DNA from: a virus
Taxonomy: Duplodnaviria > Heunggongvirae > Uroviricota > Caudoviricetes
Length of the DNA stretch: 64,000 nucleotides
Reading direction: 5' to 3' (one strand)
IMG/VR virus record: IMGVR_UViG_2524614843_000001
Span: 39,279-103,278 of that record
Shown here: in pieces, positions 1,342-31,437 of the stretch
How the letters are laid out: each line of letters begins with the position of its first letter
How positions within the stretch are numbered: the stretch's first letter is position 1
Program-made: the position numbers and the translations under genes
Notes under the pieces: model-generated
Seen by the model: the letters and a program-made list of their open reading frames with translations, nothing else
Databases searched by the model: none
Told to the model about the DNA's origin: nothing

Positions 1342-2904
1342 TTAAGAGCCGTTGTTTTCAACGGTCGAACTACCCTGCTGATTCGAGCCCTGACCCAGCG
1401 GGCGAGGGTCAAGGCCGTCAGCAGGCCCACTTTTGCCACCGAAGCCCGGCAGGCTAACCAAGCTTTTTGGCCAGTCCTTTTCGATGGCATCAATGATCTT
1501 TTTGCGCTTCACAACCGATAGCTGCGGATAGAGCTTATCTACCAGGCGCTCCAGTTGATGCCGGCGCAATTCGTCCGGCGCGTCCAGATCTTGCAGGCGA
1601 GTCGCAATATCGAGCTCATCCACCAGACCGCGCGTATCGAAGGTTTCCGGATAGGTCACAAGGTTCTCGCTCACTTCTTTGCTGTGATAAGCGGATACCA
1701 AGCGACAAATTTGGTTTTCAGCCAGCTCAAGCGCATCTGCCTTGGAGACCAGCAGTGCATTCACACGCTCGAAGTCGAAGGCCTTGGCCACGCCCGAGCT
1801 GTTGTCGATGCCCATTGAGTTATCAGATTTGGTGCGCTCACCCGCCAATCCGACAGAGTGGTAGATCTCGTTGATGATCTTGGAGATCACATCGAGAATC
1901 ACATTTGCCTGTTTGGCATCAGGGCTGATGTATTTAGGCTCGCCGCCGTGCTCGCCGTCGTAGGTAAACACGCGCTTGGTGCCGGCATCTACCAGCTTGC
2001 TGTAACCCTCATCACCAGGCAGCAGGCCTTGAGCTGGCATTACCAGCTGGCTAAAGGTCTGGTCCTGAATGATGGCGTCCAGATTCGACAGATAGTTCGC
2101 AACGGCACGGTCGAGATAGGCAATGTCATCAATCAGGCCTGGCGATGAGTACGAGCGCACATGCGAAATCATGTGGTCGAGGAATACCACCGGCACTTTG
2201 CCAATTGAAACTTCACCGCCATCGACAGTGAAGTTGCCAGTTGGCGCCCCTTTGCTATCCAGCTCGGGCTTAATCAGATACCAGTTGTTCTTTGTCCAGA
2301 GGCGGAATCGCTCATGGACGAGGCCGGACGACGTGAAGGGGTCAGCATCATCACGCCCATGCTCACGGAGCAGCACCCAGCTAAGCTCGCCGGCCTCGTC
2401 CCAAGCGAAATCGAGAATATCCTCGACACTCACAAAGTAGGCATACACTGTGTTGCCAAGCTGCTTTTCCTCGGCCAAATTGGCGGGCTTTGGTGTTTCG
2501 GCACCCACTCGGCTATCCACCACAATGGCGACGCGACCACCAATCGAGCTCAGCAGCGAGCCTTGGCGCATAAATTCGTCGATACCCAGGCCTGAGCCAT
2601 TTACGCTCTTCCAAAAGGCCTTCACAAACTCCGGCGCATCAGTAGCGCGCTCAGGTAATTTCTTGAAGAGGTACTTGTTGACCAGATCAGAAACTTCCTT
2701 GGTGTGATTGAAGCGATAGGCACGCGCAATACGCTGCCGAAATTCGTGCTTACCCTCTTTGTGGTAAGTGAAAATGTGCTTCTTAAACCACTCGCGGCCA
2801 CCCTCATAGGTTTCGCGCAGAAAACCCCAATGCTTAATCAGCTTGGCGTATTCCGGATGGCGTCTTTTACTGATGGTTGAAATTTGTTCTTGTGAGTACG
2901 ACAT
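1342..2904 (-). CDS. Portal protein (putative)
   Basis: 520 aa, immediately downstream of large terminase and upstream of scaffold; size and position typical of portal. Confidence 0.55.
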   Translation of the reverse strand: MSYSQEQISTISKRRHPEYAKLIKHWGFLRETYEGGREWFKKHIFTYHKEGKHEFRQRIARAYRFNHTKEVSDLVNKYLFKKLPERATDAPEFVKAFWKSVNGSGLGIDEFMRQGSLLSSIGGRVAIVVDSRVGAETPKPANLAEEKQLGNTVYAYFVSVEDILDFAWDEAGELSWVLLREHGRDDADPFTSSGLVHERFRLWTKNNWYLIKPELDSKGAPTGNFTVDGGEVSIGKVPVVFLDHMISHVRSYSSPGLIDDIAYLDRAVANYLSNLDAIIQDQTFSQLVMPAQGLLPGDEGYSKLVDAGTKRVFTYDGEHGGEPKYISPDAKQANVILDVISKIINEIYHSVGLAGERTKSDNSMGIDNSSGVAKAFDFERVNALLVSKADALELAENQICRLVSAYHSKEVSENLVTYPETFDTRGLVDELDIATRLQDLDAPDELRRHQLERLVDKLYPQLSVVKRKKIIDAIEKDWPKSLVSLPGFGGKSGPADGLDPRPLGQGSNQQGSSTVENNGS

Positions 2905-2932
2905 ATCTGCACCTAAACCTTAACAATATTAA

Positions 2933-2951
2933 ATCACCTGTGACTTATTTA
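2933..2951 (-). promoter_or_regulatory. Class-A intergenic motif copy (aTCAcctgTGACTTATTTA on plus)
   Basis: Between terL stop and portal start; matches consensus GTCA-N4-TGACTTACTTA. Confidence 0.5.
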
Positions 2952-2956
2952 TGCAA

Positions 2957-4213
2957 TCACAAAGAAACGCCCAAAATTTGAACACGGCGCATCGGAAATT
3001 CGAGCTCAATTGGATAGCCAATCGCGTCAGCAATGTGCTCGATACCGGCGCTCTTATCCACTTCGCGCGAACCTTTCTTGTAGAGCACCTGCTCAAATGC
3101 CTTAATCAGATGCTTGCAGCGCTCATCGATGCGCAGAATGACCCGACCGGATGCCGACATAAGCAGTCGATTGACCGCATTGACCCGATCTGCCACTGGA
3201 GGGTGCTTCTTGCGGTACTTAATACGCTTGAAGCCGATCTCTCGCATGATGTCGAGGTCAGACTCACCACGACCATGCTGCCGGCTGGCACCGGCTGGGT
3301 CGGGGTAAAGCGTGATCTGGTTCTTGCCCAGGTAGCGCCAGTAGCGCCGCTCTAACTCGGCGCCCATATCTTCGGTGTTAGAGCTGAACCGCACGCACTC
3401 ATCGACCGCCCACACCTCGCCGTTTGGTTGCGGCTGCAGGATGATTGCGCTCATTGGGTCAATGTTGAAGTCCTGACCAATCCAAATGGGCAAGGCCGGA
3501 TTGAAGTCGTACTTCCCGACATGCACGTTCCGGTCGAAGGTGTAGTACACCCGTCCGCTCATGGTCTCGAACGCCGCGTTGAACTCCTGGTTGAACGTCT
3601 TTTCATCCATATCCGCCTTCGCCGCTTCAATTTCCTCGGGCGGAATAAAGGGCGACATGAGCGTAGGGAACTGCCAGCTCATCCAAGTGCGGCCGTCGCG
3701 CTGCCCCATCATGAAAAGCTTGTGCAAATGGTTGTAGGCCTTTGGCGTTCCGATGATCAGCGCATGACCCAACGTAGAGGCAAGGGTTGGGCGAAGCACC
3801 GTTTCCCACACCTCGGGCTTAATGTCCTGAAACTCGTCCAGCACCACAAAATGCAGACCAACGCCTCGCAAGGTGTCTGGTTTATCCGCACCTTTGAGCT
3901 CGATAATCGTCCCATTGACCAGATGAATGATCATCATGGTTTCATTCATACGTCTGATCAATTTGCGGGGTATAGCGTCGGTAAGCTCGCGCCACATGAT
4001 CTGGCGAGCCATACGGTAGGTAGGCGCCACGTACCAGATCAGCTGCTTAGGCTTAGCCGCATACTTGATGATCGAGATTTTTGAGAGCTGTGTTTTGCCC
4101 CAGCGCCGACCTGCAACCACGACCTTGTAGCGCGCTGGATGCCGATAAACGAGCATCTGGCCGCGATGAAGCTTGAGCGATTGCCGCTTTTTGGCCGTCG
4201 GAACAGTGATCAT
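2957..4213 (-). CDS. terL: Terminase large subunit
   Basis: 418 aa; Walker A VVAGRRWGKT, Walker B-like VVLDEF; C-terminal nuclease-like region; overlaps terS stop. Confidence 0.8.
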   Translation of the reverse strand: MITVPTAKKRQSLKLHRGQMLVYRHPARYKVVVAGRRWGKTQLSKISIIKYAAKPKQLIWYVAPTYRMARQIMWRELTDAIPRKLIRRMNETMMIIHLVNGTIIELKGADKPDTLRGVGLHFVVLDEFQDIKPEVWETVLRPTLASTLGHALIIGTPKAYNHLHKLFMMGQRDGRTWMSWQFPTLMSPFIPPEEIEAAKADMDEKTFNQEFNAAFETMSGRVYYTFDRNVHVGKYDFNPALPIWIGQDFNIDPMSAIILQPQPNGEVWAVDECVRFSSNTEDMGAELERRYWRYLGKNQITLYPDPAGASRQHGRGESDLDIMREIGFKRIKYRKKHPPVADRVNAVNRLLMSASGRVILRIDERCKHLIKAFEQVLYKKGSREVDKSAGIEHIADAIGYPIELEFPMRRVQILGVSL

Positions 4214-4866
4214 TCCGGCACCTCGCTCTCGTCCACCTCGCTCTCGTCATCGACCTCTTCGACTACGCCAGGCTCAAGACCAAACTCTTCCAAATCTTGA
4301 ATTTCCGGCATCGACATGGCTGCGCGCTGCTGGTTGCGGATTTCCTCAACCTCATTGGCCGACAGCTCGGAAATCTCAAAGCCAGGCAACTCCTCTGCGC
4401 CACCCTCTTCTTCTTTGATGCCCAGCAAGATGTACTCTTCGGTGCGCAACTTGCTCATTGCCTCGACACCTAGCTTGATGGTCATCATGGTGTCTTTGAG
4501 GCTATCCATCGAAAAGCCGGCAGGGTTCTCGACGAAGCTCTTTGCAGACAGAGCAGAAATGCTATTGAGCAAGTAGGACAGGCGCTGAGCGGTCTGGATA
4601 TGGCGCTTTTTGGCGTCCTCTTGCAGCTTGAGCTTTTCGTCACGCAGAGCTAGCTCCCGAGCCATGCGCTCTTCGCGCTCTTTCTCTGCCAGCTCGCGGG
4701 CTGCGCGCCCTTTAACCGCACCCAACTCTTTGATCACCCGGGCGATGGTGCCGCGATGCCGATCAAATGCCTTGGCAATCTGCTCGATGCTGGCGTCCAT
4801 CTCGTACATCTCGGCGATTTTCTGTTTTTCCGCCTCGGTCAGACGTGTTTTCGTTTCGCTAGTCAT
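4210..4866 (-). CDS. terS: Terminase small subunit (HTH DNA-binding, acidic C-terminus), putative
   Basis: 218 aa; N-terminal HTH-like segment (IEQIAKAFDRHRGTIARVIKE), coiled-coil, acidic tail; immediately upstream of terL with 4-nt overlap. Confidence 0.5.
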   Translation of the reverse strand: MTSETKTRLTEAEKQKIAEMYEMDASIEQIAKAFDRHRGTIARVIKELGAVKGRAARELAEKEREERMARELALRDEKLKLQEDAKKRHIQTAQRLSYLLNSISALSAKSFVENPAGFSMDSLKDTMMTIKLGVEAMSKLRTEEYILLGIKEEEGGAEELPGFEISELSANEVEEIRNQQRAAMSMPEIQDLEEFGLEPGVVEEVDDESEVDESEVPE

Positions 4867-4879
4867 ACCAATTCAAGTC

Positions 4880-4913
4880 AATAAAAAAAGGGGCAGCGTT
4901 TTACCGCCGCCCC
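4880..4913 (-). terminator. Hairpin plus U-tract (minus-strand sense) 14 nt upstream of terS ATG
   Basis: GGGGCAGCG-ttttac-CGCCGCCCC stem preceded on plus by A8 (U-run on minus transcript). Confidence 0.45.
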
Positions 4914-4988
4914 TTGCACAAACAGGAACCGAACAAGTCTCGCTAAACGCACGACTTGGTTTCATATTACGGCGTTTTAATAACATAA

Positions 4989-5006
4989 GTCAACAGTGAC
5001 TTACTA
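4989..5006 (-). promoter_or_regulatory. Class-A motif copy; its TTGACT half-site plus TAATAT 18 bp downstream form a sigma70-like promoter reading toward terS
   Basis: Minus strand reads TAGTAAGTCACTGTTGACTtatgttattaaaacgccgTAATAT. Confidence 0.45.
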
Positions 5007-5008
5007 TC

Positions 5009-5141
5009 TAATCCGGAGTAGATCGTGGATAGGTAGAAGTTGGGAATTTTTATGCTTTCCAATATTTATTAACTACAGATAGATAGAAAGATAATATCTA
5101 TTGGAGCGTCAAGATTTTCCCAACTCAACCTCTCCGGATTA
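5009..5141. repeat. Nested inverted-repeat element, copy 1 (TAATCCGGAG...GTTGGGAA...CCAATA-[AT-rich core TTAACTACAG + GATAGATAGAAAG]-TATTGG...TTCCCAAC...CTCCGGATTA)
   Basis: Three concentric inverted-repeat pairs around an AT-rich core; second copy at 17699-17860. Confidence 0.7.
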
Positions 5142-5453
5142 CTTCTCCGCGGTAGGCTTTGCAACGAAATTAAGCGCCCCTCGCCGGCTCGCAGCCAAGA
5201 TGCGGAAGGCTTCAAGCGTTGGCTTCCAGAGGTGTCGCTCCTTACCCTCTTCGACGATCACTTCACAGGCGGCAAGACCGTACTGCTGCAGATATGTCAG
5301 AGTGCAGCGCAGCGCACGCGGTGTCGGCGCGTAGCTGAGCATCAAGCGCAGCTCATTCGTCCGGATGGCCTTGCACGCCTCATTCTCATGACAGAGCCTT
5401 GCCAACACCTCCATCTGCTTTACGGTACCGGCGAACTGTTTGACCTTCTTCAT
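5139..5453 (-). CDS. Hypothetical protein (104 aa), last gene of ParB/ABC/GNAT operon
   Basis: GGAGGGA RBS; start overlaps stop of upstream GNAT-like gene. Confidence 0.5.
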   Translation of the reverse strand: MKKVKQFAGTVKQMEVLARLCHENEACKAIRTNELRLMLSYAPTPRALRCTLTYLQQYGLAACEVIVEEGKERHLWKPTLEAFRILAASRRGALNFVAKPTAEK

Positions 5454-6343
5454 GCCAGTCCCTCCAGATTGAGCGGCTCATGCACGCCCTGCCGGTCGAA
5501 TGCGGTCAGCGGAAGCCGGTCGGGCAGTACAAGCCCCACATCGGGGTTGAAGTAGAAGCCCCAGGCTGGCGCCCCGAAAATCAACTGCTGCATTTCCTTG
5601 AGCAAGTGAGCGGCCTCCATCGCCTCAACGCGCGAAGTACCGTTCTTCAAGTTTCCGCCCGTCTTTTCTTTGGCGCTCTCCTTGTAGTACCACTGCTTCA
5701 TGCGGCGCAGCACGCTCTGACGCATCACTTCCGGCATGGCATTGAGCTCGTTCATGATCGCTTCGTGGTCAACAGGGTCGGACTCGAACAGCCCGCGCAG
5801 GAACTTGAGCCCGATCTCGTACTTGGTGCTGGGCTCCGGCTTGGCGAAGCGAAAGCCTGCCCGCTCGGCGAACGGGTTGACCTTGCTCATCGAGCTGCTG
5901 ATCTCGTACAGGCGCAGGCCTTCCAGACGCATCGACAGGTTCAGCATCCGGTACGCCAGCCCGACGCCGCGGAACTGCGTGTCGTTGACCACGCGGGCGG
6001 CAAGCGCGAACTCCCGATTGATGACCTTGCCGCGCATGGTGTTGAGCAACGTGCTGTCTGCGCCTGGCTTGATGCCTGGCAGAACGCGGTGGCGGTTCTT
6101 GTCGAGCAGACGCGGGCGAGTGAACACCACAACACCGATGGTTTTGCCGGCCAGCACGCAGCGCCAGTAGTGGGCGCCGAACATGCTGTTGCTTTCGGTC
6201 TTGTAGTGCAGGGCGTGTAGCTGATGCCAGTCATCAATCGTTCCACGCTCCACGTACATATCGCGCAGCAATGAGAACGTGCGGGAAGCGGGCTGCAAGC
6301 GCATCAGACGCGCGTTTGCAGTGTCGGATAGGATAAGACTCAT
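5450..6343 (-). CDS. GNAT-fold acetyltransferase-like protein with about 120-aa C-terminal extension
   Basis: 297 aa; GNAT motif A-like RVVNDTQFRGVGLAYRML; translationally coupled to the upstream ABC ATPase gene. Confidence 0.5.
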   Translation of the reverse strand: MSLILSDTANARLMRLQPASRTFSLLRDMYVERGTIDDWHQLHALHYKTESNSMFGAHYWRCVLAGKTIGVVVFTRPRLLDKNRHRVLPGIKPGADSTLLNTMRGKVINREFALAARVVNDTQFRGVGLAYRMLNLSMRLEGLRLYEISSSMSKVNPFAERAGFRFAKPEPSTKYEIGLKFLRGLFESDPVDHEAIMNELNAMPEVMRQSVLRRMKQWYYKESAKEKTGGNLKNGTSRVEAMEAAHLLKEMQQLIFGAPAWGFYFNPDVGLVLPDRLPLTAFDRQGVHEPLNLEGLA

Positions 6344-6346
6344 CCT

Positions 6347-7054
6347 TCACTCTCCCGCGCGTTCTGAGCGCGTTTCTGCGTCATTCCGGACGATCTCGAC
6401 TTTCTCCCCGTAATACTTCTCCAGAATCAGGGACGGGTTGAGATCTTCGACCAGATCGCCGTGCGTGGTGGCGACGATCAGAGTCTTGCCGGCGCGGCGT
6501 GCAGCCTGCTGCAGTTGGTACGAGATTGCCTTTGCGGTGTTCCGGTCGAGCACGGCGCCGAACTCGTCGGCAACCCATACATCGGCATCGCTGCTCAGCA
6601 TATAGGCAAGCAATAGACGGTATTTCTGGCCATCCGACAGTTCGCCCGGGCGCCGGATGACGAGGTTTGCGTCATTGATACCGCCAAGAGACAGCAGCCG
6701 GATGGCTTCTTGCATGTCACCATTGGGCGCCAGCTGGTCCACCAGCGGCAGATTCGGGTCGAAAAGCTGACTCAAAACGCCATCTGAGGCCAACCCAATC
6801 GAGCCGACTTTCAAGCCGGCCGTTGCCAGCTGGCGAGCAGTTTCTCGCAGCGCGATGGATTTGCCGGAGCCGGATTCGCCTGTGATGTAGAAAACGTCGC
6901 CCTGCTCGATCTCGAACTGCAGGTTGTCGTAGATGGTGAACTGCTTGTCGTCCAAACCAACGCCAAACATTTCTGCGACCTGGCGCACGCGCTCAGTGCG
7001 CATAACTGACATGGCAAAGGCGACGTTCAGAGTGATGGTGTGTTTCCAGCTCAT
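6347..7054 (-). CDS. Stand-alone ABC-type ATPase (235 aa)
   Basis: Walker A GESGSGKS, ABC signature LSDGQKYRL, Walker B VWVADEF, H-loop TTHGD; ATGA overlap with upstream ParB-like gene. Confidence 0.7.
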   Translation of the reverse strand: MSWKHTITLNVAFAMSVMRTERVRQVAEMFGVGLDDKQFTIYDNLQFEIEQGDVFYITGESGSGKSIALRETARQLATAGLKVGSIGLASDGVLSQLFDPNLPLVDQLAPNGDMQEAIRLLSLGGINDANLVIRRPGELSDGQKYRLLLAYMLSSDADVWVADEFGAVLDRNTAKAISYQLQQAARRAGKTLIVATTHGDLVEDLNPSLILEKYYGEKVEIVRNDAETRSERAGE

Positions 7055-7737
7055 GCCGCGGCTCCTTCAAGATAGCGGCCGGCGAAGTCCATGAATGCGT
7101 CCTTGCCTTCCTTGCCGGTAGCGCCCTCAATCATGGCCATGAAGCGAGTCAGCCGACGTTGCTCTTCCACGGTGACGTGCTTGAAGCCCAGCACCTTGTC
7201 GATATTCACCTTCTCGGCATCGACGGTCTCGATTTTTTCCGCCGTCGAGGTGGCAATCGAGGTGCTTGCAGCAAGTAAGTTATCCACCGTTTCATTGAGG
7301 TCGATTTCATCGATCTTGAAGTCGCGCAGCAGCTTATCGAGCTCGCCGGTGTCGATTGCGGTCAGCTCGGCCAGCTCGGAAACATCGAAAGACAGATCAC
7401 GCAGCTCGGCGGTCAGGAAGTCGAAGTTGGTTTCGCCCAGCTCGCCCATGCGGTTGTCGTTGATGCGGAACAGGCGCTTGTCCTCTTCCGACATGCCGGT
7501 GACAACCAGTACCGGTACCGATTTGAGCTCTAGTTCCAGCGCAGCCAGTCGGCGACCATGACCGGCCATGATGACGAAGTTTTCATCGACGATGATGGGC
7601 GGTCCGGCCCAGCCTCGCTTCATGTTGGCCGCGAGCGCCTTGATCTGGCTCGGTGGGTGATTCTTGGGGTTCCGATCATAGGGAACCAGCTTCTCGATTG
7701 GGAAGTTGTTATGAAGTTCGCGCTTGATGTGTTCCAT
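7051..7737 (-). CDS. ParB N-terminal (ParB/Srx nuclease-like) domain protein 2
   Basis: 228 aa; ParB-box-like GHGRRLAALE; acidic C-terminal half. Confidence 0.6.
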   Translation of the reverse strand: MEHIKRELHNNFPIEKLVPYDRNPKNHPPSQIKALAANMKRGWAGPPIIVDENFVIMAGHGRRLAALELELKSVPVLVVTGMSEEDKRLFRINDNRMGELGETNFDFLTAELRDLSFDVSELAELTAIDTGELDKLLRDFKIDEIDLNETVDNLLAASTSIATSTAEKIETVDAEKVNIDKVLGFKHVTVEEQRRLTRFMAMIEGATGKEGKDAFMDFAGRYLEGAAA

Positions 7738-7740
7738 TAT

Positions 7741-7759
7741 GTCACCTGTGACTTACTTA
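7741..7759 (-). promoter_or_regulatory. Class-A motif copy (GTCAcctgTGACTTACTTA); includes stop codon of ParB-1 and ends 3 nt before ParB-2 ATG
   Basis: Minus reads gcTAAGTAAGTCAcagGTGACataATG. Confidence 0.55.
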
Positions 7760-8427
7760 GCGGTGAAGAGAATGTGAGCGAGAGCGTAGCCGGCATTAGT
7801 CAGCGCATCCTCTTCGGTAAAGCCTTGTTGCTCGCGGACGTTTTCAATCAGCTCGCGGATACGGATGGCGTCTGCCACCGGCACTTTGAAGCGGAGGATT
7901 TCGTGGGTTTTGACCTTTTCGCTCAGCGGCTCAACCACCGGTGCTTCTGGCGTCAGCTCTTCTGGCGCTGAAAAATCAGGAATTTCCAAGGCATCCAGAT
8001 CAATGCTGGTCGCTGCAAACAGATCATTGAGTTCGCGGTCACTAATCGGCATGAAGCTGGTGAGCTCTGGAAGATCAATATTCAGACTGGCAATGACCGC
8101 ATTCAGCGCGTCAATATCGTCGGCGCCGTAGCGCGCGTTATCCAGCAGGCCAATTTCTTTGGCCTCTTCATCGCTAATTGGGCCCAAGTTGAAAATCGGC
8201 ACTTCTGCCAGGCCAATTCGGATGGCTGATTCACATCGATGTTGGCCACCCAAAATTTCCAGAGTTAAACCTTCATTTGAGGGTATTTCGCGCACGATAA
8301 TTGGCTTAAACATGCCTCGGCGCTGAATACTCGCATCCAGTTTTGCCTCGTTATCCGGTGAAACTCGATTCGAGTTCCAAGGGTTAGGTTTTAGAGATCG
8401 CGGGTCAGCTTTTGATTGTCCAGTCAT
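7753..8427 (-). CDS. ParB N-terminal (ParB/Srx nuclease-like) domain protein 1
   Basis: 224 aa; GGQHR motif (EILGGQHRCESA) typical of ParB/DUF262-type domains. Confidence 0.6.
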   Translation of the reverse strand: MTGQSKADPRSLKPNPWNSNRVSPDNEAKLDASIQRRGMFKPIIVREIPSNEGLTLEILGGQHRCESAIRIGLAEVPIFNLGPISDEEAKEIGLLDNARYGADDIDALNAVIASLNIDLPELTSFMPISDRELNDLFAATSIDLDALEIPDFSAPEELTPEAPVVEPLSEKVKTHEILRFKVPVADAIRIRELIENVREQQGFTEEDALTNAGYALAHILFTAK

Positions 8428-8454
8428 TCCCTTATCCGTCCTGCTAAAATGTTA

Positions 8455-8474
8455 GTCATCGATGACTTATCATA
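8455..8474 (-). promoter_or_regulatory. Class-A motif copy (perfect palindrome AGTCATCGATGACT + TATCATA) in divergent region between ParB operon and helicase
   Basis: GTCAtcgaTGACTTATCATA; oriented toward ParB-1. Confidence 0.5.
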
Positions 8475-8489
8475 AGCGCCAAAGGCAAT

Positions 8490-10187
8490 ATGAATCAACC
8501 AACTGTCCAAATCGTACACAACGCAATCACCGCAAAGTTGCTGTGTGAAAACCGAGAGGTTCAGCTGTACGTCGCCAAGCTCATGAGCTACGCGGTTTCG
8601 GGCGCCGAGCACAGCAAGGCGGTCAAAAGCCACGCCTGGGACGGCCGCAGCTCGTTTTTCTCTATGCGCGATCAGACGTTTCCTGCCGGATTCGTCAATA
8701 TGGTGCGCGATTCGCTGACCAAGCTGGGCATCAACTGCGCCGTTCGCGCGAAGCCACTTCCTGAGCCGCTCGGGCCGGAGGACTTTTGGAACGCCGACGG
8801 CATCGGTAACAGCGACGAGCGCTACGACTACCAGCCAGAGACCATCCACCGCCTGCTCAAGCACGGTCGGGGCATTGCGCAGATCGCAACCGGTGGCGGT
8901 AAATCACGCATCTGCCGGCTGGCCTACGCCCGCATCAATCGCCCCACCCTCTTCCTGACAACTCGTTCGGTGCTGATGTACCAGATGAAGAAGAACTTTG
9001 AGGATACCTTTAAAGAGGAAGTCGCTGTTCTGGGCGATGGCGAGTTTGGCATCGAGTACGCCAAGACTGACGGTACCAAAGGGCGCCGGCTGACCAAGTT
9101 CACTGTTGCCATGATTCAAACGCTCGCTTCCAGACTGGAAATGCCGGCTGAGATTGGCGCGCGTGAGCGTCGGCGCGCAAACGAAGTGCTGAACAAGGCC
9201 GCGGAGAAGGCGCGGAAAATGACCGCGGAAGCTGCCGCCAAGTACATTGAGCAAGCAAAGCGCCAGTCCGAAGAAATCATCGCCAGCATTCCAGCCAAGG
9301 AAGAAGCACAGCGCCGTCGGCGTGAGGCAACCATCCAGATTCTCTCGCGCTTCGAGTTCGTGGTGCTGGAGGAAGCGCACGAAGCGTCCGGCAACAGCTA
9401 CTACGAGATCTGCCAGCACTGCACCAATGCGCACTACCGGCTCGCGCTGACCGCCACCCCGTTCATGAAGGGCGACGAGGAAGCGAACATGCGCCTGATG
9501 GCTGTGTCCGGTCAGGTGTTTATCAAGGTCTCCGAGAAGCTGCTGATCGATCGTGGCATCCTTGCCCGCCCCTACTTCAAGTTTATCCGGTTGCTAGAAA
9601 AGCCAAAGGGGCTCAATCGCACGACGGCCTGGCAGAAGGCCTACAAGATGGGCGTGACTGAAAATCCTCACCGGAACAAGGCCATCATCCGTGAGGCGTA
9701 CAAGGCTGCATCAATCGGACTGCCGGTGATGATTCTGGTACAGGCAAAGGTGCATGGCGCGCTGCTCGATGACACCCTGAAAAAGCTCGGTATCCGGTCG
9801 AGCTACATTTTCGGCGACAGCTCGCAGGAAGAGCGCGAGCGTGAGCTCGGCAAGCTCAAGTCGGGCGAAACCCAAGTGCTGATCGGCTCAACGATTCTGG
9901 ATGTGGGTGTGGACGTGCCGGCCGTCGGGATGGTGATTCTGGCTGGTGGCGGGAAGGCGGAAGTTGCCCTTCGCCAGCGTATCGGGCGCGGACTGCGAGC
10001 GAAGAAGGACATGCCAAACGTGTGTCTGGTCGTGGATTTCGACGATCATCACAACAACCATCTGTACGACCATGCGATGACTCGCCAGTACCACATCCGG
10101 AATACGCCAGGCTTCGCGGAAGGGGTGCTGGCGGCAGGGGGCGAATTTGACTATCTCGGTCTTGGGCTCATAAAATCAGCAGCGTAA
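8490..10187 (+). CDS. Superfamily-2 DNA helicase (DEAD/DEAH-box, UvsW/type III res-like) with coiled-coil insertion
   Basis: 565 aa; Walker A IATGGGKS, motif II VLEEAH, motif VI QRIGRGLR; only large plus-strand core gene. Confidence 0.8.
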   Translation: MNQPTVQIVHNAITAKLLCENREVQLYVAKLMSYAVSGAEHSKAVKSHAWDGRSSFFSMRDQTFPAGFVNMVRDSLTKLGINCAVRAKPLPEPLGPEDFWNADGIGNSDERYDYQPETIHRLLKHGRGIAQIATGGGKSRICRLAYARINRPTLFLTTRSVLMYQMKKNFEDTFKEEVAVLGDGEFGIEYAKTDGTKGRRLTKFTVAMIQTLASRLEMPAEIGARERRRANEVLNKAAEKARKMTAEAAAKYIEQAKRQSEEIIASIPAKEEAQRRRREATIQILSRFEFVVLEEAHEASGNSYYEICQHCTNAHYRLALTATPFMKGDEEANMRLMAVSGQVFIKVSEKLLIDRGILARPYFKFIRLLEKPKGLNRTTAWQKAYKMGVTENPHRNKAIIREAYKAASIGLPVMILVQAKVHGALLDDTLKKLGIRSSYIFGDSSQEERERELGKLKSGETQVLIGSTILDVGVDVPAVGMVILAGGGKAEVALRQRIGRGLRAKKDMPNVCLVVDFDDHHNNHLYDHAMTRQYHIRNTPGFAEGVLAAGGEFDYLGLGLIKSAA

Positions 10188-30467: not shown

Positions 30468-30603
30468 GATCGTTCGTCTCCGCGGGCAACCAGGCATTTG
30501 GGTTAGTGACGGTTTGCCACCAGCTGACCCACGCATAAAGTGCTAGCTGGCCATAAAGCGGGACACCCCAAGCAGAATGAGGAAATAGGAACATAGCTAT
30601 CTA

Positions 30604-30620
30604 CCTTTCTATCTATCTAT
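30604..30620. repeat. Class-B motif copy CTTTCTATCTATCTATC
   Basis: GATA-repeat family. Confidence 0.6.
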
Positions 30621-30631
30621 CAATCTGGTTA

Positions 30632-31129
30632 TCAATCGATGGTGTAGCTGGTACTAGAATCGCCAAAGCTGTACTCAACACCGCCAGCAGATCGCGTAGG
30701 CTCGTCATGCGCGCTGCTAGAACTCCAGGCGCTTGAGGCAACGGTAGGGCTGGGAGAGAGCCCGCTTAATACGTGCCGGTCTGTGGTTTCACGCTCTGAC
30801 GAGCGATCAAGGGCATCGGTCTTGTCGAGCAGATCAATTGCCGCTGCGATGGCTGTGAAAGTCACTGCCGGTTCGTCGGTATCCGGCTTGGTCTGGGCAA
30901 ACCCAAATGAGGTTGATCGACTCGAAACTGTCGGCCGCGGAGTAGGCCGATCAAGGATTTCCAGTAACGCTTTATGCTCGGCATCCGAATCGACCAGTGC
31001 TCGGGTTGTGGCTACAGCCGGTTGGCTAGGTCGAGGTGTGGTCGCACGCTTGGGCGGCTGGGTGGCGATCGGCAAATCTGCTTTACGACGGAACAGCCGC
31101 TTGAAGAACGCTTTGATTGACAGTCTCAT
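30632..31129 (-). CDS. Hypothetical low-complexity (P/T/S-rich) protein
   Basis: ATGA overlap with upstream gene. Confidence 0.4.
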   Translation of the reverse strand: MRLSIKAFFKRLFRRKADLPIATQPPKRATTPRPSQPAVATTRALVDSDAEHKALLEILDRPTPRPTVSSRSTSFGFAQTKPDTDEPAVTFTAIAAAIDLLDKTDALDRSSERETTDRHVLSGLSPSPTVASSAWSSSSAHDEPTRSAGGVEYSFGDSSTSYTID

Positions 31130-31437
31130 GCCGCCACCCCGCTCACTGAGTCAGGCACCCGCATCCAGCATTGAATCCAGACCGCATCATGGGCTTCACT
31201 CACAACGGCATCGTCATCGACGGCGATATGATCTTCTGCCATCAAACGACCGATTTTGATTTCCTTCTCGGTAGCCTGGCGCCGGCCAACTTGGGCGTTG
31301 TGTATCTTCACGATATGAATTGCATCGTCGAGGTCCATCGGGCCAGCAACAAGACAACCTTCTTCATCCAGCACAACGCCACGCTTGAAGGGCTCGCCGG
31401 TTTTGATTTCGTCATAAGACCAACGTGATTCGTTCAT
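31126..31437 (-). CDS. Hypothetical protein (103 aa)
   Basis: ORF. Confidence 0.5.
   Translation of the reverse strand: MNESRWSYDEIKTGEPFKRGVVLDEEGCLVAGPMDLDDAIHIVKIHNAQVGRRQATEKEIKIGRLMAEDHIAVDDDAVVSEAHDAVWIQCWMRVPDSVSGVAA

Follow-up and report, generated by a model that had tools for sequence, protein, structure and literature searches.

The five co-directional genes at positions 5139-8427 of the window (the whole stretch of viral DNA analysed, 64,000 nucleotides) may encode an ATP-driven, acyl-CoA-dependent acyltransferase whose target would be nucleic acid (probably the DNA of the phage) and which would work with ParB-like partners in the manner of DpdA/DpdB. We hold this reading tentatively and put its probability at roughly 0.4. 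All five genes lie on the minus strand, exactly where the original prediction had placed them: ParB1 (7753-8427, 224 aa), ParB2 (7051-7737, 228 aa), a soluble ABC-type ATPase (6347-7054, 235 aa), a GNAT-fold acyltransferase-like protein (5450-6343, 297 aa) and a small basic winged-helix-like protein (5139-5453, 104 aa). These are open reading frames for which an independent public gene call returned the same five products. Overlapping start and stop codons had been proposed throughout the operon. Such coupling was found at two of the four junctions, i.e., as an ATGA overlap of the ParB2 stop with the ABC start (7051-7054) and of the GNAT stop with the start of the small gene (5450-5453), whereas the ABC/GNAT and ParB1/ParB2 junctions have spacers of 3 nt and 15 nt, respectively, and no overlap. 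The five genes could form one transcription unit with a multi-subunit, nucleotide-powered acyltransferase as its product, although we stop short of even odds on this.

The ATPase belongs to the ABC superfamily, with Walker A (GESGSGKS), signature (LSDGQ), Walker B (VWVADE) and H-loop (TTH) motifs and a match to Pfam ABC_tran at 2.5e-12. That these full motifs come without a transmembrane partner, as had been suggested, was borne out: no hydrophobic 19-mer above KD 1.42 was detected in any of the five proteins, and hence the operon provides no membrane partner. Public annotation would nevertheless make these genes subunits of an ABC transporter, i.e., auxiliary metabolic genes, under the PHROG/RefSeq names ‘ABC transporter’ and ‘ABC transporter ATP-binding subunit’, and the ATPase finds its closest NCBIfam and PDB matches among nucleotide-binding domains of the transporter type. 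However, its NCBIfam scores all fall far under the family cut-offs, neither a membrane domain nor a binding-protein gene is present in the operon or in any relative (SSU5, nickie, RHEph10), and the supposed ‘ATP-binding subunit’, phrog_886, is the GNAT protein, which has no P-loop. For practical purposes, the transporter reading is refuted.

The 297-aa protein has the GNAT superfamily fold, with a core at approximately aa 30-170 and a helical/beta C-terminal extension at aa 175-297, in agreement with the earlier call of a GNAT-like protein with a long extension. Its sequence contains a predicted acyl-CoA motif A, R125-G-V-G128-L-A130, which conforms to the R/Q-x-x-G-x-G/A pattern, and a motif-B-like stretch, NPFAERAGF. 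Among 43 homologues, R125 is invariant and G128 is present in at least 90%. Searching the PDB with the profile of the GNAT family gave no match. The protein is basic (pI 9.7), and the family median pI of 9.47 together with a core net charge of +12 makes a polyanionic substrate plausible. The 104-aa protein is also basic, its family profile weakly matches PadR/MarR winged-helix regulators, and a counterpart recovered with an iterated profile directly follows the GNAT gene in 79 of 79 related loci.

The two remaining proteins had been read as ParB-domain proteins with GGQHR and GHGRR motifs; these domain calls were right, and the motifs lie at residue 60 of ParB1 and residue 59 of ParB2. Both proteins have the N-terminal fold of the ParB/Srx superfamily with a nucleotide-pocket motif of the G-x-x-R type, and by sequence comparison they are paralogues, sharing 24% identity and a common architecture. 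ParB1 comprises a ParB/Srx N-domain (aa 1-100), a helical region, a disordered and very acidic linker and, at the C-terminus, a segment with two predicted helices (aa 184-223); GGQHR and DNxRYGxDD are invariant in its N-domain. ParB1 matches ParB_N and the N-domains of Spo0J/ParB/Noc, its PDB matches span only aa 6-109, and its model has no central HTH domain. ParB2 has no Pfam match; it matches phrog_930 (5e-49), and its N-domain comes nearest to the ParB domain found in ParB-methyltransferase fusions of phages (phrog_498, 3e-29; PADLOC MTase_II, 1.4e-18). A methyltransferase domain is absent from ParB2. Its nickie and RHEph10 orthologues are called ‘DNA methyltransferase’ in RefSeq, which is an annotation artefact. 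An RHH-like reading of the C-termini of ParB1 and ParB2 was unsupported in the PDB profile search. The linkers of both proteins are extremely acidic (net charges -13 and -14; protein pI 4.55 and 4.97 for ParB1 and ParB2). Because the two proteins are very acidic and lack the HTH of DNA-binding ParBs, DNA loading by ParB1/ParB2 is only a proposal.

Upstream of the module, a sigma-70-like promoter candidate (TTGATT-18-TATGAT) was found on the minus strand at 8469-8498, with its -35 element falling within the beginning of the divergent helicase gene. As a consensus match, of which the 5 kb scanned gave three against 1.9 expected, it carries little weight by itself. A perfect 14-bp palindrome, AGTCATCGATGACT (8454-8467), lies within the 62-bp divergent region between helicase and ParB1 and overlaps the transcription start implied by this promoter-like site; it is a candidate operator. 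It is probably what had been described as a ‘class-A motif’ ahead of the operon, and it is a member of a clade-wide motif, TAAGTCAnnnnTGACTTA. The family GTCA-N4-TGACT has 22 strand matches in the window, where 0.28 would be expected, and the motif core is present in the helicase/ParB1 gap of 39 of 68 related loci. A second copy, AGTCAACAGTGACT (4988-5001), marks the downstream boundary of the module and shares bases with the -35 element (TTGACT) of another promoter-like site (4993-4964), which precedes the TerS-like/TerL operon. The predicted end of the module's transcription unit is an intrinsic-terminator-like hairpin on the minus strand (4888-4915; 11 pairs, 8 of them G-C, then a T run) located 22 nt ahead of the TerS-like start, where the leader fold reaches -41.5 kcal/mol (z -4.7). 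With a promoter-like site and a terminator-like hairpin of its own, the module stands apart from the TerS-like/TerL operon, and this counts against the proposed role.

These dispersed palindromes, the match of ParB1 to ParB_N and the Spo0J/ParB/Noc N-domains and the relationship of the window to SSU5-type phage-plasmids could be taken to mean that ParB1 and ParB2 are centromere-binding proteins in plasmid-type partition of a phage-plasmid. Yet the palindromes are single copies upstream of operons and form no centromere array, ParB1 is modelled without an HTH, and the operon contains neither ParA nor another partition NTPase. In SSU5, the module occupies record positions 99817-103237, whereas a ParA-like gene lies elsewhere, at 30497-31162. 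The module is also kept in Nickievirus, whose member Nican01 was predicted to be virulent by its authors. Partition, which the original prediction had already rejected, is therefore largely refuted and highly improbable.

The original prediction had named lack of conservation as a set as grounds for doubting it; the set is conserved. Relatives were drawn from 291 IMG/VR contigs with the GNAT gene, of which 80 loci were fetched, and in these the gene order is helicase / ParB1-ParB2-ABC-GNAT-small-TerS-like-TerL-portal. Order and strand are identical in 69 of the 70 relatives carrying all four genes, and the layout from helicase to portal is also annotated in SSU5, nickie and RHEph10. The clade that keeps the module consists of phages of about 100 kb and phage-plasmids. 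Median identities of the module proteins (ABC 51%, ParB1 48%, GNAT 48%, ParB2 36%) compare with 52% for portal and 49% for helicase. Judged from these sequences, the module belongs to the conserved backbone of the clade and is not a patchy accessory, and conservation at this core-gene level disfavours a typical patchy anti-defence accessory.

In Bathyarchaeia proviruses, the counterparts of the window's ABC and GNAT proteins are parts of a single polypeptide, of which the window genes are, on alignment, the split form. By BLASTP, the window ABC protein aligns with aa 17-212 of one fused protein, P0125 (48% identity, E 4e-60), and the window GNAT protein aligns colinearly, its extension included, with aa 222-473 (24% identity, E 4e-16). 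The fused relatives have HPKYRGIGLG as motif A. In a profile search, the best 150 of 994 matches included many proteins of about 440-560 aa matched in their C-terminal part, and all ten longer proteins sampled (484-1260 aa) have Pfam ABC_tran N-terminal to the matched region. Because the two are one polypeptide in other viruses, ABC and GNAT are most likely one enzyme.

The fused gene immediately follows TerL in 83 of 160 Bathyarchaeia-type loci, in some cases overlapping it, and adjoins TerS/TerL in L237 and in the L164 provirus. In other loci its neighbours encode a 1275-aa protein that by eye is Pol III alpha (L166), a Pfam-confirmed family-A polymerase (L230), or a Pfam-confirmed primase-polymerase and a 748-aa protein that by eye is PolB (L239); in P0157, ABC-GNAT is fused to a family-B polymerase. 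Another reading is packaging-linked protein acylation or packaging control. The enzyme would then modify or regulate the terminase, the portal, the capsid or an initiation complex for packaging bound to DNA, with the packaging start region marked by the ParB-like proteins; we consider this quite unlikely. The Bathyarchaeia fused genes have no ParB-like neighbour, and ParB is thus not essential to the enzyme. A candidate ParB-ABC-GNAT fusion exists as well: the N-terminus of a 673-aa ORF in L237 is about 50% identical to standalone proteins of about 190 aa, whose profile aligns with that of the ParB1 family across the NTP-pocket motifs (hhalign E 9e-5), although the ParB assignment of this N-terminus is modest (probability 59%, a single lineage). 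One such standalone gene heads a cassette of ParB-like, ABC, GNAT and 59-aa genes among cellular genes, an arrangement that fits a self-contained system and is silent on DNA.

This cassette resembles a mobile conflict island and is one of the features that bring up a host-directed or anti-defence effector, in which ABC-GNAT would acylate a host protein, aminoacyl-tRNA or small immune-signalling molecule and the acidic ParB-like proteins would be NTPases, nucleases or DNA mimics that disarm defences. GNAT toxins that acetylate aminoacyl-tRNA are known, and the strongly negative ParB1/ParB2 linkers suit such a role. ParB/Srx proteins act as effectors in conflicts of plasmids and phages (Osa and DndB discussion, PMC10853773). 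Anti-defence genes are, however, usually patchy and fast-changing, whereas the module keeps a fixed order in the related genomes examined and diverges like portal and helicase, and the fused form, abutting or overlapping TerL or joined to a DNA polymerase, points to virus DNA transactions. PADLOC gave no system-specific match, only generic ones (the MTase_II ParB domain, and the ABC part of mad3, mad8 and PtuA), and none for the GNAT or 104-aa protein. An effector is in our judgement unlikely. Of the DNA-targeting, modification or anti-defence role first suggested for the module, the anti-defence part is accordingly disfavoured, and the nucleic-acid direction is better grounded through the ABC-GNAT fusion, its placement at packaging or replication genes of unrelated viruses, the recurring ParB-like partners, the strongly basic GNAT and the published ParB-partner cases.

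Nucleic acid could also mean RNA, with the enzyme as an ABC-powered analogue of TmcA/NAT10 that marks tRNA, rRNA or phage mRNA with N4-acetylcytidine or something similar. The basic GNAT would suit this, and ASCH-domain genes adjoin ABC-GNAT in L237/L318, L245 and about 20 archaeal-type provirus loci; the ASCH family includes ac4C amidohydrolases and tRNA ac4C erasers (PMC6972931; bioRxiv 10.64898/2026.02.27.708502). Against it, ASCH occurs in just 16 of the 151 archaeal-type loci that could be assessed (pooled over three scans, with some contigs in common), and neither the SSU5-like loci nor the window contain it. The ATPase is also unlike a helicase, the genes around ABC-GNAT encode DNA polymerases, primases and terminases and do not serve translation, and the enzymes for which ParB-like partners are known to date act on DNA. 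We regard an RNA target as very doubtful.

For an acyltransferase directed at phage DNA, we infer complex formation, substrate, chemistry and biological purpose as follows. The ABC halves would dimerise with ATP, by which the GNAT halves would be closed or positioned on a polyanionic substrate, to which acyl-CoA would donate its acyl group. The acidic ParB1 and ParB2 would bind NTP and, as partner subunits, would load the enzyme, target it or switch it on, and the small winged-helix-like protein may be a DNA-binding or regulatory subunit. The likeliest substrate would be nucleic acid, probably phage DNA that has just been replicated and is awaiting or undergoing packaging, leaving an acyl mark on the genome. 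The 25 of 77 matched PHROG families listed for the window included the usual nucleotide metabolism and no other base-modification genes. A broader and unlikely proposition is that ABC-GNAT is the prototype of a class of ATP-driven nucleic-acid acyltransferases in tailed viruses that has so far gone unrecognised and would write an acyl mark, e.g., N4-acetylcytosine, on viral DNA after replication and before packaging. In proteobacterial phages and phage-plasmids, ParB-like NTP switches would load or activate the enzyme, and in some archaeal and other lineages ASCH proteins would erase or read the mark. If so, the system would span SSU5-type bacterial phage-plasmids and Bathyarchaeia proviruses. 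A literature search found neither the module nor a characterised member.

In comparison with known systems, Mom of phage Mu, a GNAT-fold DNA adenine methylcarbamoylase, appears no more similar to the window GNAT than dozens of unrelated GNATs are, lacks its C-terminal extension, and is not known to need an ATPase or ParB partner. TmcA/NAT10 couples a P-loop ATPase to a GNAT acting on a nucleic-acid base, and ASCH neighbours, of the ac4C hydrolase family, recur beside ABC-GNAT. The module is nonetheless not a member of this group, which has a helicase-type ATPase, GNAT and RNA-binding domain: the window ATPase is ABC-type, no sequence relationship was found, and the ABC-GNAT context is viral DNA replication or packaging. 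A GNAT-RHH toxin-antitoxin pair, with a small GNAT toxin beside a ribbon-helix-helix antitoxin and a patchy distribution, does not fit: the PDB profile search gave no support for RHH in the ParB C-termini, and all relatives examined have the module in fixed synteny. With ParABS and the CTP switches (ParB, Noc, KorB, PadC), ParB1 has the N-domain fold and part of the nucleotide-pocket motifs in common, but the switches carry GERRxR where ParB1 has GGQHR, ParB2 GHGRR and SSU5 ParB1 GGEHRWRAA, and without an HTH, a cognate ParA in the operon or a parS array, ParB1 and ParB2 are not canonical ParABS ParBs. The phage ParB-methyltransferase fusions resemble ParB2 in the ParB domain alone.

The best functional analogy for ParB1/ParB2 appears to be with DpdA/DpdB and the 5mYOX clade E thymine dioxygenases, in which an adjacent ParB/Srx-fold NTPase is needed for the activity of a base-modifying enzyme. 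DpdB is described as a ParB-like ATPase whose activity is needed for insertion of preQ0 into DNA by DpdA (PMC12839542), and the phage clade-E T-dioxygenases show no activity unless a ParB-like protein is co-expressed (bioRxiv 10.1101/2025.08.14.668559). The window differs in having two ParB paralogues and, as the enzyme, a predicted ABC-GNAT acyltransferase rather than a transglycosylase or dioxygenase. The closest relatives of the enzyme itself are the COG2401/MK0520-type fused proteins, annotated as ‘ABC-type ATPase with predicted acetyltransferase domain’ (a label taken from the IMG and GenBank source annotations only), for which a search of the literature by COG number and annotation phrase found nothing relevant. 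Both halves are homologous to and colinear with the window genes, and the two share the ABC motifs, GNAT motif A and a C-terminal extension ending in an NPD motif. The fused family is itself uncharacterised, and the module differs from it in that the gene is split into ABC and GNAT and joined by two ParB-like genes and a winged-helix-like gene.

The module at 5139–8427 comprises five ORFs, all on the minus strand and in the same direction, i.e., ParB1 (7753–8427), ParB2 (7051–7737), the ABC ATPase (6347–7054), the GNAT protein (5450–6343) and a small protein (5139–5453). An independent public gene call on identical DNA gives the same five products (224, 228, 235, 297 and 104 aa), which confirms the gene set of the original prediction. 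The overlapping start and stop codons from which translational coupling had been proposed were found, by direct reading of the sequence, at two of the four junctions (an ATGA overlap at both ParB2/ABC and GNAT/small gene), whereas the other two have spacers, with 15 nt between the ParB1 stop and the ParB2 ATG and 3 nt between the ABC stop and the GNAT ATG. Because of this junction spacing, the five genes are seen as tightly packed and plausibly coupled in translation.

Upstream of the module, a DEAD/ResIII helicase gene (8490–10187, plus strand) diverges from ParB1 across a region of 62 bp, which carries a sigma-70-like site (TTGATT-18-TATGAT, 8498–8469, minus strand) and a perfect palindrome, AGTCATCGATGACT (8454–8467). 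On the 3' side, an AT-rich spacer of 272 bp contains a second copy of the palindrome (4988–5001), overlapping the TTGACT –35 element of a promoter-like site (TTGACT-18-TAATAT, 4993–4964, minus strand) ahead of a TerS-like HTH gene (4210–4866, minus strand), the stop of which overlaps TerL (2957–4213, minus strand). A strong intrinsic-terminator-like hairpin with a T-run (4915–4888, minus strand) lies ~50 nt beyond this promoter-like site and immediately before the TerS-like gene, 22 nt ahead of its start; the leader folds at –41.5 kcal/mol with a z of –4.7, and an Rfam scan of window positions 4700–8600 returned no known RNA family. With a promoter-like site and palindrome upstream, and a promoter-like site and hairpin downstream, the module looks like a transcription unit of its own between the helicase gene and the packaging operon. 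The succession of promoter-like site and hairpin (window 4867–5000) resembles the lambda PR'-tR' layout, and this analogy suggests that the late packaging operon may be under antitermination control.

In the window, 16 sites (368, 4989, 8455, 13924, 35814, 37441, 38911, 43654, 50459, 55123, 62579 and others) carry the palindrome, GTCA-N4-TGAC with the extended consensus TAAGTCAnnnnTGACTTA, and GTCANNNNTGACT gives 22 strand matches there versus 0.28 expected. Intergenic DNA holds twelve of these 16 sites, mostly 4–63 nt 5' of minus-strand gene starts. The motif is kept clade-wide, with 272 sites in 1.3 Mb of relatives (the SSU5-like loci L004–L083), and is frequent in three of their gaps, i.e., helicase/ParB1, GNAT/TerL and TerL/portal. 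It probably serves a conserved phage regulator as operator or promoter element. A third copy in the 15-nt ParB1/ParB2 spacer (7741–7752) is probably a coincidence and not a regulatory site, because it coincides with AGGTGA, a perfect Shine-Dalgarno sequence, and only 1 of 73 relatives has the motif in this gap.

ParB2, a paralogue of ParB1 (24% identity) with the same architecture, carries a GHGRR motif. The best match of its N-domain is to the ParB domain found in phage ParB-methyltransferase fusions, but ParB2 has no methyltransferase domain. A ribbon-helix-helix fold had been suspected for the ParB C-termini from their sequence pattern, and a PDB profile search gave no match to it; AF2 places two helices there behind an extended stretch. 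The 104-aa protein is basic, has a counterpart directly 3' of the GNAT gene in all 79 related loci recovered with an iterated profile, and the profile of its family has a weak match (E 4e-4) to winged-helix regulators of the PadR/MarR type. Neither it nor the GNAT protein has an NCBIfam or Pfam match, PADLOC gave generic matches only for the module proteins, the GNAT family profile matched nothing in the PDB, and a BFVD structure search with the GNAT returned generic GNATs only. The parts come from known superfamilies, i.e., ParB/Srx, ABC, GNAT and, probably, wHTH.

The ABC protein carries the motifs Walker A, LSDGQ, Walker B and H-loop, and is similar to nucleotide-binding domains of the transporter type. 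As predicted, this ATPase with full ABC motifs has no transmembrane partner: a membrane segment is absent from all five proteins. An ABC transporter is hardly credible in a module with no membrane or binding component, and the protein publicly named 'ABC transporter ATP-binding subunit' is actually the GNAT, which has no P-loop. ParB2 orthologues are likewise named 'DNA methyltransferase' despite having no such domain (misleading names: NC_042091.1 gp158 and gp155; NC_034248.1 gp083 and gp078; NC_018843.1 SSU5_129). Public annotation labels the module as transporter, methyltransferase and partition system.

Chitinibacter tainanensis entries on a 103,278-bp contig match the GNAT and ParB1 proteins at 100% identity, and the element is distantly related (42–68% protein identity) to SSU5-type phage-plasmids, Nickievirus and RHEph10-type rhizobiophages. 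The window has no nucleotide-level similarity to phage records beyond 130 nt; megablast of the module region against these records gave only 67–130-nt matches, in the ABC gene of rhizobiophages. By tblastn, the GNAT gene was found in 31 phage records, among them SSU5-type phage-plasmids of Salmonella, Klebsiella and E. coli, Nickievirus, Stenotrophomonas and Xanthomonas phages, and RHEph10-type rhizobiophages. In SSU5, nickie (a Nickievirus) and RHEph10 the order is helicase (divergent), ParB, ParB, ABC, (small ORFs), GNAT, small gene, HTH, TerL and portal. In IMG/VR the GNAT gene is present on 291 contigs; each of the 80 loci fetched keeps this layout as far as its sequence reaches, the shorter ones ending at contig ends. 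Of the 70 loci that bear all four genes, 69 share order and strand. Median identity to the window is 63% for TerL, 52% for portal, 51% for ABC, 49% for helicase, 48% for both ParB1 and GNAT, and 36% for ParB2. The gaps vary among relatives (ParB2–ABC up to 1.2 kb, ABC–GNAT up to 2.2 kb), and small genes have therefore been inserted without breaking the order. The module behaves as a core module and not as a patchy accessory gene; it recurs as a set elsewhere, so that the lack of such conservation, which would have refuted the original prediction, is not seen.

A large and widespread group of ~95–120-kb siphoviruses and phage-plasmids has the module in its conserved backbone; the group includes SSU5-type elements (Salmonella, Klebsiella, E. 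coli), rhizobiophages, and Nickievirus isolates of the biocontrol target Pseudomonas syringae pv. actinidiae (Psa). ParB1 homologues were also seen on ~96–150-kb contigs of Azospirillum, Magnetospirillum, Roseospira and Inquilinus isolates; elements of the window type are therefore widespread. Plasmid-type partition is very improbable: ParA, HTH and centromere array are all lacking, the ParA-like gene of SSU5 stands apart (record 30497–31162) from its module (99817–103237), and the module is retained in Nickievirus, of which the member Nican01 is predicted to be virulent and has long direct terminal repeats. The original prediction had likewise rejected this function, on seeing no ParA-type ATPase and no obvious parS array.

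Among 1.84 billion cluster representatives, a GNAT-family profile matched 994. Many among the 150 matches listed are proteins of ~440–560 aa with a C-terminal GNAT-like region, and Pfam ABC_tran lies N-terminal to this region in 10 of the 10 longer proteins sampled (484–1260 aa); source annotations name such fused proteins 'ABC-type ATPase with (fused to a) predicted acetyltransferase domain'. The window ABC aligns to residues 17–212 of one of them, P0125 (48% identity, E 4e-60), and the window GNAT, its extension included, is colinear with residues 222–473. Judged from these alignments, the ABC and GNAT proteins most likely work as one enzyme. Unusual architectures of the family include ABC-GNAT behind a family-B DNA polymerase (P0157, 1260 aa), an ABC domain interrupted by a LAGLIDADG intein (P0141) and ABC-GNAT followed by a TFIIB repeat (P0117). 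The literature on COG2401, SSU5, phage ABC-GNAT-ParB and Bathyarchaeia proviruses yielded no description of the module, and no characterised member of the ABC-GNAT family, its split form or the five-gene module.

This catalytic core is a family of ~1000 cluster representatives, terminase- or polymerase-linked in bacterial and archaeal viruses. A survey of archaeal-type loci, with one genome per GTDB species, gave best 80 loci that are mostly from Bathyarchaeia, often with several copies per MAG. The Bathyarchaeia fused gene lies within a tailed-provirus block (tail tube, HK97-gp10-like), directly 3' of the large terminase (Terminase_6N, 3.6e-12), with stop and start often overlapping or abutting, and no ParB-like gene was found near it; examples are L136 (6337–9380) and the CAYRSV01 and CAZWDU01 contigs. 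Of 160 archaeal-type loci, 83 have TerL directly upstream of the fused gene and 3 directly downstream, and in another 22 it lies elsewhere within ±8 kb. Many IMG/VR contigs stop within a few hundred bases after the fused gene, which therefore lies close to a provirus or genome end. In two loci that we take to be putative Bacillota-type proviruses (L164, 3645–5440; L175, 9522–11344), the fused gene is followed by Amidoligase_2 (2.8e-49) and gamma-glutamyl cyclotransferase (GGACT, 1.2e-15), a possible amide-bond or glutamyl-transfer partner set; in L164 the group sits between a TerS-like gene and TerL.

The fused gene is also found beside replication genes. In L166 it is flanked on one side by a primase-like gene (by eye) and a Pfam-confirmed DHH/RecJ gene, and on the other by a gene for a 1275-aa protein, a putative Pol III alpha by eye only; in L230 it is immediately 5' of a Pfam-confirmed family-A polymerase, and in L239 it is 5' of a Pfam-confirmed primase-polymerase and a 748-aa putative PolB (by eye). 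A 107-kb viral contig, L245, has split ABC (39% identity) and GNAT (29%) genes 3.6 kb apart, with five genes between them (2655–7762), two of which encode a class I SAM methyltransferase and a protein with weak sulfotransferase similarity, and no ParB or TerL within 7 kb. A ResIII helicase gene lies nearby on the opposite strand, echoing the helicase beside the window module. What recurs around ABC-GNAT is the section of viral genomes given to DNA replication and packaging. Terminase adjacency by itself would fit an acylation of proteins linked to packaging, but we regard this as rather improbable given the replication-module and cellular contexts of ABC-GNAT and the module's separate transcription unit.

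Outside the clade, a ParB link was found at L237/L318, where a single 673-aa ORF, with TerS-like and TerL genes next, has an extra N-terminal region before ABC-GNAT. This region is ~50% identical to standalone ~190-aa proteins, the profile of which matches the ParB1 family (hhalign probability 59%, E 9e-5) across the NPN...ADGEQR...N motifs; direct hhalign of the L237 N-terminus to an 8-sequence ParB alignment was weak (probability 15%). The profile of standalone homologues thus gives modest grounds for calling the N-terminus ParB-like. One standalone protein, P0350, heads a cassette of ParB-like (190 aa), ABC_tran (227 aa), Acetyltransf_1 (145 aa) and 59-aa products, flanked by histidine kinase and Na/H exchanger genes; another, P0355, is followed by a P-loop gene, incomplete at the contig end. 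ParB-like, ABC and GNAT proteins thus appear to travel together in three arrangements, which is independent evidence of modest weight. The cassette in a cellular setting, together with the acidic ParBs, would suit an effector directed at the host or its defences, a reading that we find unlikely in view of the core-like conservation of the module and its links to terminase and polymerase genes.

ASCH-domain genes adjoin ABC-GNAT in three viral lineages, usually on the opposite strand. One is immediately upstream of ABC-GNAT at L237/L318 (L237 350–724; Pfam ASCH 4.6e-11); at L245 another lies ~450 nt downstream (8197–8652, minus strand, opposite to GNAT; Pfam 1.1e-4, exceeding the gathering score). 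About 20 archaeal-type provirus loci have ASCH ≤2.5 kb downstream, on the opposite strand in 20 of 21 (e.g., L218 9322–9711, L225 6833–7222 and L181 9690–10076, all minus), which amounts to only 16 of 151 loci with enough downstream sequence (three pooled scans, some contigs common); none was found in the SSU5-like loci examined. TmcA has an 'ATPase + GNAT' design, the ParB family is linked to CTP, and ASCH is common in phages. Because of the ASCH neighbours, the TmcA-like logic and the ParB–CTP link, N4-acylcytosine is a concrete, testable candidate product of ABC-GNAT; the ASCH association may partly reflect chance or shared ancestry. The ASCH family has among its members YqfB, the N4-acetylcytidine amidohydrolase of E. 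coli, and proteins proposed to erase ac4C from tRNA (PMC6972931; bioRxiv 10.64898/2026.02.27.708502). That the module is itself an RNA writer of the ac4C type seems distinctly improbable.

Our preferred reading, to which we give a probability of roughly 40%, is that the module is an ATP-driven, acyl-CoA-dependent acyltransferase: an ABC2-GNAT2 assembly would acylate a polyanion, most likely phage DNA, with ParB1 and ParB2 as its NTP-binding partner subunits. All steps past the folds, the fusion and the context we infer. A hypermodification pathway was sought in the window (among the 25 of 77 matched PHROG families listed) and in nickie, and only usual nucleotide metabolism was found, i.e., RNR and ThyA, plus DHFR in nickie. 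If DNA acylation is true, the module would represent a novel type of enzyme for modifying viral genomes, in chemistry and architecture, with bearing on restriction evasion, sequencing and phage engineering; if the substrate is instead protein or RNA, it would still be a conserved, testable function of the SSU5/Nickievirus/rhizobiophage group. Either way the module is conserved, widespread, mis-annotated and directly testable, with a function that we infer.

A ParB-like cofactor of a DNA-modifying enzyme is a known idea, and the module would be of this ParB-assisted, nucleic-acid-modifying type. DpdB is described as a ParB-like ATPase with an activity required for the insertion of preQ0 into DNA by DpdA (PMC12839542), and clade-E phage thymine dioxygenases, which have terminases as frequent neighbours, are inactive without a co-expressed ParB-like protein (bioRxiv 10.1101/2025.08.14.668559). 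DNA acylation by the module would add a further case to the rule now emerging, in which DNA-modifying enzymes have ParB-like proteins as cofactors. Phage DNA methyltransferases also occur with fused ParB domains, comparable to the partner role proposed here for ParB1 and ParB2.
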